Of a stretch of 64,000 nt of DNA, positions 28,749-29,224 are shown one piece after another. Both the position numbers and the translations under genes were made by a program. The stretch lies in NCBI GenBank assembly GCA_963700635.1, contig CAVOYH010000005.1, positions 32,001 through 96,000 of the forward strand, written 5' to 3'. Below the pieces are notes generated by a model. That model was not told the DNA's origin and searched no databases. It saw only the letters and a program-made list of their open reading frames with translations. This DNA comes from an uncultured Bacteroidota bacterium (GTDB lineage Bacteria > Bacteroidota > Ignavibacteria > UBA10030 > UBA6906). How positions within the stretch are numbered: position 1 is the stretch's first letter; every line of letters begins with the position of its first letter.

Positions 28749-28780
28749 AAAAAAACCCCCAATAAAATCAGGGGGTTTTT
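28749..28780 (-). terminator. Intrinsic terminator of the tRNA-Asn gene
   Basis: aaaaaccccc-N10-gggggttttt immediately after the tRNA 3' end, with a T-run on the minus strand. Confidence 0.8.
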
Positions 28781-28819
28781 GCTCCGCGAGCAGGACTCGA
28801 ACCTGCAACCCTGCGGTTA

Positions 28820-29151
28820 CGGCATTCCCCAAAGCTTTCGCTTCGGTCCGGACTATCTCATCATCCTCTTATGGCAATGAGGACGCCGGGCGCTGATGGG
28901 GCTTATCGGTGAGAATCCTCATCCCCTAGTCTCTGCACGTTCCCTGCTACGTTCATTCTCTTCGCAGGGCTTCGCTCAGGGTTGCCATGCCCCCATTTCC
29001 GAGGGTTTAGGGTTCCCTGAATTCACCCGGTTTTCCACTCCCGGTCACCCGGAAGCGCTGCTATTCCTGCATGAACCTCTCGGTGACAGTTTGCGCAGAA
29101 ATGTACGCGCCTATCAGCATATTTCCGAGAATCTCGACCCATGCAGAGCTC
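28820..29151 (-). ncRNA. Group I self-splicing intron (332 nt)
   Basis: Exon 1 ends in U and the intron ends in G. P1 GCUGU/GCAGC with U.G at the splice site; P3 CCGGGUG/CGCCCGG; P4 UCAGGG/CCCUGA; R element GCAGAGACUA and S element GAGAUAGUCC form P7. Confidence 0.93.
29023..29142 (-). pseudogene. Remnant of an HNH homing endonuclease inside the intron
   Basis: 39-codon frame MGRDSRKYADRRVHFCANCHREVHAGIAALPGDREWKTG*; CANCHREVH resembles the HNH C-terminal CxNCHxxxH motif. Confidence 0.7.
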
Positions 29152-29195
29152 ACAGCCGCATGCTCTACCATTGAGCTATCGCGGAATAACTCAAG

Positions 29196-29224
29196 AATAT
29201 ACGGAAGACCCGCAACATTGTCAA
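29196..29224 (-). promoter_or_regulatory. Sigma70 promoter of tRNA-Asn
   Basis: TTGACA-17 nt-TATATT, ending 10 nt before the tRNA 5' end. Confidence 0.85.

Follow-up and report, generated by a model that had tools for sequence, protein, structure and literature searches.

Group I introns in bacterial transfer RNA (tRNA) genes, as well as homing-endonuclease genes that have decayed within group I introns, are the closest described systems for the locus analyzed here. This locus is a 332-nucleotide (nt) group I intron in the tRNA-Asn(GUU) gene of an uncultured Bacteroidota bacterium (GTDB lineage Bacteria; Bacteroidota; Ignavibacteria; UBA10030; UBA6906), encountered in a stretch of 64,000 nt, hereafter the window (assembly GCA_963700635.1, contig CAVOYH010000005.1, positions 32,001 to 96,000 of the forward strand, read 5' to 3'). 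The P1 loop of this intron very probably contains the remnant of an HNH homing-endonuclease gene, in which one in-frame deletion has spared both strands of a helix. Homing-endonuclease genes reportedly go through cyclical gain, decay, and loss, according to the model of Goddard & Burt, and the enzyme encoded by the tRNA-fMet group I intron of Synechocystis PCC 6803 is said to belong to the PD-(D/E)XK family, not to HNH. A 2025 preprint by Nakagawa, Amikura, Omae & Suzuki (bioRxiv 10.1101/2025.07.03.662931), judged by its title, appears to concern bacterial tRNA-Asn group I introns. The number of tRNA settings of group I introns has been raised from 4 to 21 (17 new), introns above approximately 400 base pairs (bp) being candidates to hold genes (Williams 2020, bioRxiv 10.1101/2020.01.27.920355); the text of that preprint does not allow confirmation that Asn is among these settings. 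In the available part of the review PMC3984707, the work on the Synechocystis endonuclease (Bonocora & Shub 2001) appears as a listed reference only, and the term "HNH" is absent from that part of its text. For the nrdB intron of phage T4, the accessible part of PMC2790892 describes I-TevIII as a defunct HNH-family gene, inactivated by deletion in an intron that persists and that is mobilized in trans by another nuclease. A literature search, which did not extend to supplementary material, returned no paper text describing a tRNA-Asn group I intron.

The tRNA-Asn(GUU) gene occupies positions 29185-28781 of the minus strand and is split by the group I intron at 29151-28820, the minus-strand reading around the intron being ...GCGGCUGU / intron ... 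G / UAACCGC. Computed removal of 29151-28820 yields a 73-nt RNA that ARAGORN recognizes as a canonical tRNA-Asn(gtt), which places the break in the anticodon between positions 35 and 36. Rfam RF00028 matched at 29114-28829 on the minus strand with 87.7 bits, as compared to a threshold of 50, and over the full model (positions 1-253). The exon end GCUGU (29156-29152) pairs with the guide GCAGC in the folds, with U at position -1 in a U.G wobble in P1; the final intron base is the G at 28820 (omega-G), and ligation of the exons restores the canonical tRNA-Asn. Since the Rfam score lies within the range obtained for the introns of 12 relatives (56.6-104.5 bits), the ribozyme core is without sign of decay. 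The intron, which may resemble the Azoarcus intron and may be IC3-like or IA in subgroup (Rfam has a single group I model), presumably self-splices, and the cell would need this splicing for its tRNA-Asn. With introns allowed, ARAGORN reported this gene in the whole genome as Asn(gtt) i(35,332) on contig C5, 60781-61185, corresponding to window positions 28781-29185; in default mode it made zero tRNA calls across the whole window. No uninterrupted tRNA-Asn was found by ARAGORN among the 46 other tRNA genes of this genome, which is 97% complete, and the six contigs of the whole genome gave one group I intron match only. The sole tRNA-Asn gene found in this genome is, in other words, one that standard tRNA finders overlook.

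An earlier reading of the letters alone, the first-pass annotation, had counted about 90 nt from the 5' splice site to the guide GCAGC, had proposed that these nucleotides can pair (CUGCAUG/CAUGCAG and CUCGG/CCGAG) while encoding a reading frame that continues through the guide and P3 to a TGA, and had supposed that most of an endonuclease gene had been lost. Sequence reading gave the same 90 nt in front of the guide at 29061-29057, both pairings are part of the minimum-energy fold, and the frame corresponds to an open reading frame (ORF) of 39 amino acids (29142..29023, minus strand) that lacks a net 71 codons relative to the 110-codon ORF of a relative. The remnant frame reads ...CELC MGRDSRKYADRRVHFCANCHREVHAGIAALPGDREWKTG followed by the stop; it crosses the guide and P2, and its TGA lies in P3. 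It comprises the N-terminal 12 and the C-terminal 24 residues (CANCHREVH...) of an HNH protein of approximately 110 amino acids, plus 3 junction residues. Alignment to the 110-amino-acid protein of a relative from the same genus (P0001 of genome G001) showed residues 1-12 followed, beyond a clean internal gap, by the CANCH motif and an identical stop, and DNA alignment to the corresponding intron of 545 nt with its 110-codon ORF established a net loss of 213 nt, i.e., 71 codons, in frame. Split BLAST matches were obtained in G001 (query 1-44 and 53-332) and in G034 (query 1-44 and 44-332), with 221 and 212 nt in between, respectively; the introns of these two genomes are 545 and 568 nt long and contain 113 open codons. 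Moreover, 221 nt stand between 29099 and 29108 in contigs from two runs, one a metatranscriptome and the other DNA.

The 71 deleted codons held the first CxxC pair and the HH motif, including the first catalytic His, and because of this loss the 39-codon leftover is presumably devoid of nuclease activity. What the remnant keeps is the second CxxC, the Asn, and the last His, with CANCHREVH aligning to the invariant family columns N89, H91, R92, and E93. The CELC that spans the exon/intron border is not the missing CxxC pair, since it is located upstream of the start codon and also precedes the intact ORFs. Among 13 intron cores placed in a tree, those of the window and G001 group as sisters with a support of 100/98. 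This is the only resolved pair, 6 of the 10 inner branches being open, and for that reason no claim of horizontal transfer is drawn from the tree.

The same annotation had predicted that relatives carry a full HNH ORF in their tRNA-Asn introns and had suggested a BLAST search with the intron for longer versions in tRNA-Asn genes. This prediction from raw sequence alone proved right. Intron BLAST against 60 relative genomes identified matches in 13, namely 10 of 36 from the same family and 3 of 3 from one other family. The intron of the thirteenth relative is cut by a contig end and was excluded; the 12 complete introns are all located at the same CTGT/...G/TAA site of the same tRNA and measure 244, 250, 272, 307, 312, 314, 545, 551, 557, 568, 568, and 575 nt. 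In each of the six long introns (545-575 nt), the P1 loop accommodates 109-113 open codons, whose translation shows the motif ...CxxCGY...EFHH...KCxLLCANCHREVH..., which is of the HNH type CxxC...HH...CxxCHxxxH.

Within the genus of the window, which consists of six species-level genomes, the intron is present in different states or absent. An uninterrupted tRNA-Asn gene was found in G002, G003, and G005, identical to the window in both the 5'-exon query (29 nt) and the 3' exon (39 nt), and the three intron-bearing members share the identical 29-nt 5'-exon stretch. These three differ in their introns: that of G001 (545 nt) includes the ORF, that of G004 (244 nt) has a stem only, and that of the window holds the remnant. 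Patchy presence of the intron, combined with intronless alleles that have identical exons in close relatives, is the pattern of a mobile element and suggests that the intron homes into tRNA-Asn DNA. The location of the gene further suggests that the endonuclease would cut intronless tRNA-Asn DNA at the anticodon. In the G001 ORF (L003:1706-2036, residue 87 of P0001), the only full-length one in the genus, a Ser replaces a Cys of the second zinc pair that at least 90% of 54 relatives share, and this copy, too, may be heading for inactivation.

The assignment of the full-length protein to HNH was evaluated by profile and structure searches. In an alignment of 54 ORFs, 45 family members matched Pfam PF01844 at E ≤ 0.01 (best 8.8e-5), and NCBIfam returned nothing informative on single proteins. 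A profile search of PDB sequences had the HNH domain of a group II intron maturase on top (E = 0.01), in an alignment that covers both Cys pairs and the HH, followed by McrA (E = 0.03). The AlphaFold model of the full-length ORF had a pLDDT (predicted local distance difference test) of 80.5 and a pTM (predicted template modelling score) of 0.69, and its best Foldseek matches were HNH nucleases, including Cap5, the Gme HNH nickase, Cas9 HNH, and T4 endonuclease VII, with 0.059 as best E value. Database names of the ORF relatives are "predicted HNH restriction endonuclease" or "McrA". On this basis the full-length ORF was accepted as a divergent HNH protein, with the profile score of the closest ORF and the Foldseek matches short of curated thresholds.

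A word-based protein search detected 1020 proteins at E ≤ 0.001, and a scan of one genome per species gave at least 598 pattern matches, with at least 561 loci confirmed by tblastn. From the species-level scan 80 loci were fetched for detailed examination. Record titles across the scan include Bacteroidota, Ignavibacteria, Planctomycetia, Patescibacteria, Omnitrophota, Nitrospira, metagenome-assembled genomes labelled Gammaproteobacteria, Clostridia, Acidobacteria, and others, and protein identity across many phyla is 55-81%. The ORF frame is open through the HNH motif in all 80 loci. A split tRNA is present in 76 of them, and re-splicing under the U(-1)/omega-G rule returned tRNA-Asn(gtt) for 73 of these 76; for the loci L058, L085, and L086, a stricter exon search recovered the same tRNA-Asn site. 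ARAGORN labels of "Thr", "Tyr", and "Stop" had raised the idea that the nuclease also resides in tRNA-Thr and tRNA-Tyr introns, which was dropped because re-splicing and the stricter exon search showed these to be boundary ambiguities of the tRNA-Asn site. The ORF is located inside the tRNA-Asn intron at site 35/36, the predicted setting, in 73 of the 80 loci and beside it in 3, and the short contigs of the remaining 4 leave the placement undeterminable. In L049 (1023-1788), L087 (1501-2135), and L094 (1501-2107), a free-standing HNH gene adjoins the tRNA-Asn gene, up- or downstream, and the tRNA-Asn genes in these loci carry short ORF-less introns of 217-251 nt. In L028 (1501-2037), L084 (1501-2052), and L077 (1501-1995), the ORF lacks an early stop and extends over 165-184 codons, far into the core of the ribozyme.

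The 100 nt from the exon end to the guide of the window intron fold as a P1 of 5 bp, a 4x4 internal loop, a helix of 12 bp (helix 1), a 5-nt bulge, a helix of 6 bp (helix 2), and an apical hairpin. The energy of this fold is -38.6 kcal/mol (z = -3.21), and 2 of 200 shuffled sequences fold as well; for a slightly longer stretch z is -2.55, with 3 of 200 shuffles as good. Among the fetched loci, 57 long introns with mapped boundaries were subjected to folding of their first 35 nt against the 35 nt preceding the guide. These include L019, whose z value of 0.1 is invalid. End-to-end pairing surpassed shuffles (z < -2) in 28 of the 57, with a mean z of -2.15. In all 57 a GCAG guide follows within 25 nt of the last His codon, so that the 3' end of the gene always overlaps the guide and P2, and a hairpin equivalent to P2 follows the guide in 40 of the 40 relatives tested by a stem criterion.

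Covariation was assessed in two alignment sets that are sequence-based and not structure-fitted: A4, with 14 sequences including the window, and A5, with 16 sequences that are mostly Nitrospira-titled. In A4, helix 1 has 82.7% of its cells paired, and 6 of the 12 pairs have changed on both sides. The whole structure of 18 pairs has 78.2% of cells paired versus 30-45% when the partner strand is slid, and its covariation score of 0.275, versus 0.167 in shuffles, was reached by none of 500 shuffles. The first base of the start codon and its partner are AU in 5 sequences, GU in 4, GC in 3, and other in 2. In A5, 78.5% of cells are paired versus 26-55% for slid partners, with a score of 0.168 versus 0.133 (0 of 500 shuffles), and in this set the partner of the start codon is the other His codon of the motif (GC 11, AU 3, other 2). 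In constrained folds, 32 of 56 introns had all three start-codon bases paired with the 3' segment, a count that depends on heuristic start assignment, with doubtful TTG picks, and on minimum-energy folds that are biased towards pairing. Because of this, the case for covariation is made on A4 and A5. The helix is a pairing between the two ends of the gene that already exists in full-length introns, and not a new fold of the remnant.

A different leader type was observed in L027, L030, L033, L035, L047, L053, L056, L068, L072, and L086. In these ten loci, of the candidate phyla radiation (CPR) type, the leader is rich in AT, and a TTGC-TATAAT-like motif lies shortly before the ORF start. The motif is positioned in the first ~40 nt of the intron, where there is no end-to-end pairing, and the nuclease gene of CPR-type introns may have its own, intron-internal promoter.

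Other products of ORF decay were found among the relatives. Four of these have P1 loops of 36, 42, 52, and 53 nt, with differing junctions and leftover codons, for example M-H-C-Q-C-E-I-H in one relative and N-terminal codons joined to ...VHAG in another. Including the window, the five deletion products (P1 loops of 36, 42, 52, 53, and 90 nt) share one fold, in which P1 is followed by the 4x4 internal loop and helix 1, with z values from -2.2 to -4.7. In our reading, deletions would be tolerated if both helix strands are kept or both are removed. Contigs from metagenomes and metatranscriptomes contain further length variants of the P1 loop, in which, for example, 56 or 90 nt are skipped (29078-29135 and 29061-29152), and products of ORF decay therefore seem to be common in nature. 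The features of the window locus are collected in Table 1.

Table 1. Features of the interrupted tRNA-Asn(GUU) gene and its intron (window positions)
Feature	Position	Strand	Basis
Promoter-like TTGACA-17-TATATT upstream of the tRNA gene	29196..29224	minus	consensus scan, 11/12 positions; pattern match only
tRNA-Asn(GUU) 5' exon (acceptor, D arm, 5' half of anticodon arm; ends ...GCUGU, U35 last)	29152..29185	minus	ARAGORN
Group I intron, 332 nt (first base G 29151, omega-G 28820)	28820..29151	minus	Rfam, ARAGORN, same site in 12 relatives
P1 loop/extension, 90 nt, very probable endonuclease-gene remnant	29062..29151	minus	sequence, fold
Helix 1, 5' strand UCUGCAUGGGUC, includes start codon AUG 29142-29140	29136..29147	minus	fold, covariation
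Remnant ORF, 39 codons + TGA	29023..29142	minus	ORF list, translation
Helix 2, 5' strand UCUCGG	29125..29130	minus	fold; weaker support across relatives
Deletion junction, 8 nt where the closest full-length intron has 221	29100..29107	minus	split BLAST match, alignment, metagenome contigs
Apical hairpin, 5-bp stem, spans the deletion junction, specific to the window copy	29093..29108	minus	fold; sequence absent from full-length relatives
Helix 2, 3' strand CCGAGA, within H-R-E codons	29078..29083	minus	fold
Helix 1, 3' strand GGUUCAUGCAGG, V-H-A-G codons at end of HNH motif	29066..29077	minus	fold, covariation
Internal guide sequence GCAGC, P1 partner of GCUGU	29057..29061	minus	sequence reading, folds
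P2 hairpin, 7 bp, GUGA loop, directly 3' of the guide; crossed by the remnant ORF	29038..29055	minus	sequence
tRNA-Asn 3' exon, begins UAACCGC	28781..28819	minus	ARAGORN
Terminator-like hairpin + T run just 3' of the tRNA gene	28756..28774	minus	pattern match only

These data are best explained by a P1 loop that would once have held an HNH-type homing-endonuclease gene of ~110 codons, from which the first zinc-binding CxxC pair and the catalytic HH were removed by a single in-frame deletion (net 213 nt). Of this gene, ~45 nt at the beginning and ~40 nt at the end survive; in full-length introns these two ends pair with each other, extend P1, and would in this way place the 5' splice site beside the guide across an insert of ~300 nt. 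As both strands were kept by the deletion, P1 still forms, and as the AUG pairs with the CAU of the last His codon, the start codon is buried, and the helix may control translation. A broader proposal, which we make tentatively and consider somewhat less than evenly probable, is that in most non-CPR members the ORF ends form a dual-coding P1 helix that bridges the insert, blocks ribosomes, and dictates which deletions are tolerated. In such a helix the first ~35 nt, with the ribosome-binding region and the start codon, would pair with the last ~35 nt, which hold the CxxCHxxxH codons, the AUG or GUG being opposite a CAU or CAC His codon. This arrangement would keep ribosomes off the folded ribozyme of an essential tRNA and would make decayed copies retain matched gene ends.

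Several results weigh against the reading of a homing-endonuclease remnant with a retained helix, part of them concerning the protein and part the RNA. The closest full ORF scored 15.4 bits against Pfam HNH, below the cut-off of 21.4, and the AlphaFold model had no Foldseek matches at E ≤ 0.001. An HNH-family match, which the first-pass annotation had expected for the peptide, did not materialize: the 45-residue remnant translation (39 codons and 6 upstream residues) by itself had no match to Pfam HNH (PF01844), and its sole Pfam match was a chance-level Sgf11 (E = 0.041). An in-frame outcome is, moreover, expected by chance for one deletion in three. At the RNA level, the P1 loops of two relatives measure just 10-11 nt and fold as 8-bp P1 hairpins with 4-5-nt loops, so that the ribozyme can do without the extension after loss of the insert. 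Helix 2 in A4 has only 69% of its cells paired, end-to-end pairing is not significant in 29 of the 57 long introns, mostly those with AT-rich CPR-type leaders, and in A5 the number of pairs changed on both sides does not exceed that in shuffles (8 versus 6.3, with 65 of 500 reaching 8). As to splicing, none of 24 listed public runs contains more than 0.19 of the sampled words of the stretch; two RNA runs (X6 and X12) show the exons joined (28819 to 29152), but DNA run X1 shows this joint as well, so that it was not counted as splicing and may derive from intronless genes of other organisms. The minimal P1 loops, the poor conservation of helix 2, and the long introns that lack the pairing also speak for a neutral leftover, in which the remnant would be DNA not yet deleted and the helix, without a selected role, would have survived by the chance position of the deletion; the window copy is ~5% diverged from its full-length sister, and little time would have elapsed. 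This alternative is unlikely, even if it deserves serious attention, as the changes on both sides in 6 of the 12 pairs of helix 1 are above all 500 shuffles and all slid controls, the second clade (A5) gives weaker support in the same direction, and both strands were kept in five products with different junctions. Of the earlier idea that the remnant was kept as RNA structure, the retention of the helix stands, whereas its formation from the remnant does not, since the helix predates the deletion and was formed by the ends of the full ORF.

The remaining alternatives concern the status of the short ORF. No other stop interrupts its frame between the original start and the original stop, and the ORF has kept CxxCHxxxH and a basic N-terminus, as could be expected of an expressed 39-codon ORF with its own use, e.g., a small zinc- or RNA-binding peptide that aids intron folding. 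Such a role is nevertheless very improbable: no selection is needed for a frame to stay open after an in-frame deletion, a 12-bp helix hides the start codon, the fragments kept in the other deletion products differ and are mostly out of frame, and no family match was found for the remnant. Slimmer still is the chance that the deletion is an assembly artefact and that the organism carries a full-length ORF, for which the public data provide the argument. The window's own junction is absent from all contigs of the four public runs compared, contigs that come from relatives and whose uncovered parts carry no information, without an independent read or contig in these runs, which leaves the assembly as the only source of the junction. 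The junction, however, consists of 8 unique nt accompanied by three nearby substitutions, unlike a simple collapse; no repeat flanks it, and comparable natural length variants occur in other genomes and in metagenomes. We give least credence to a short ancestral form in which the 110-codon ORF arose by insertion. ORF-less introns do occur in related genomes, but the window holds both termini of a protein conserved at 55-81% across many phyla, an insertion would have to land exactly between these termini and complete an HNH fold, and the sister copy is full-length.

The decay of an HNH homing-endonuclease gene by a single in-frame deletion is, as such, a correct but fairly ordinary case of the decay of a selfish intron gene, and its value lies in a compact natural decay series inside one genus, in the sole tRNA-Asn gene found in the genome. 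A modestly new point is the identity of the retained ends, which form the two strands of a covarying P1-extension helix in which the start codon is buried. If true, this helix would explain how the ribozyme tolerates a coding insert of 300 nt in P1, what separates translation from splicing, and why the ends left in decay products match.

The element class is not new, as the preprints of 2020 and 2025 appear to cover bacterial tRNA-Asn 35/36 introns, some of them with HNH ORFs. The window intron shares with the known tRNA-Asn(GUU) 35/36 introns the host gene and the CUGU/UAA site, and belongs to the same family as the fetched Patescibacteria, Omnitrophota, and Nitrospira loci; it differs from them by the internal deletion of its ORF. 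Like the tRNA-fMet intron of Synechocystis, it is a group I intron in the anticodon loop of a bacterial tRNA with its own endonuclease presumably aimed at the anticodon region, although the Synechocystis case concerns another tRNA and has no decayed copy. The parallel to I-TevIII is that an HNH homing gene within a group I intron was inactivated by deletion while the intron was kept; there the host is a phage protein-coding gene, whereas here it is a cellular tRNA. Finally, the six genomes of the genus include the empty site, the intact ORF, the broken ORF, and the ORF-less intron, which are the stages of the cycle attributed to Goddard & Burt, and what distinguishes this locus from that cycle is that the decay products here appear to be constrained to keep the helix made from the two ends of the ORF.

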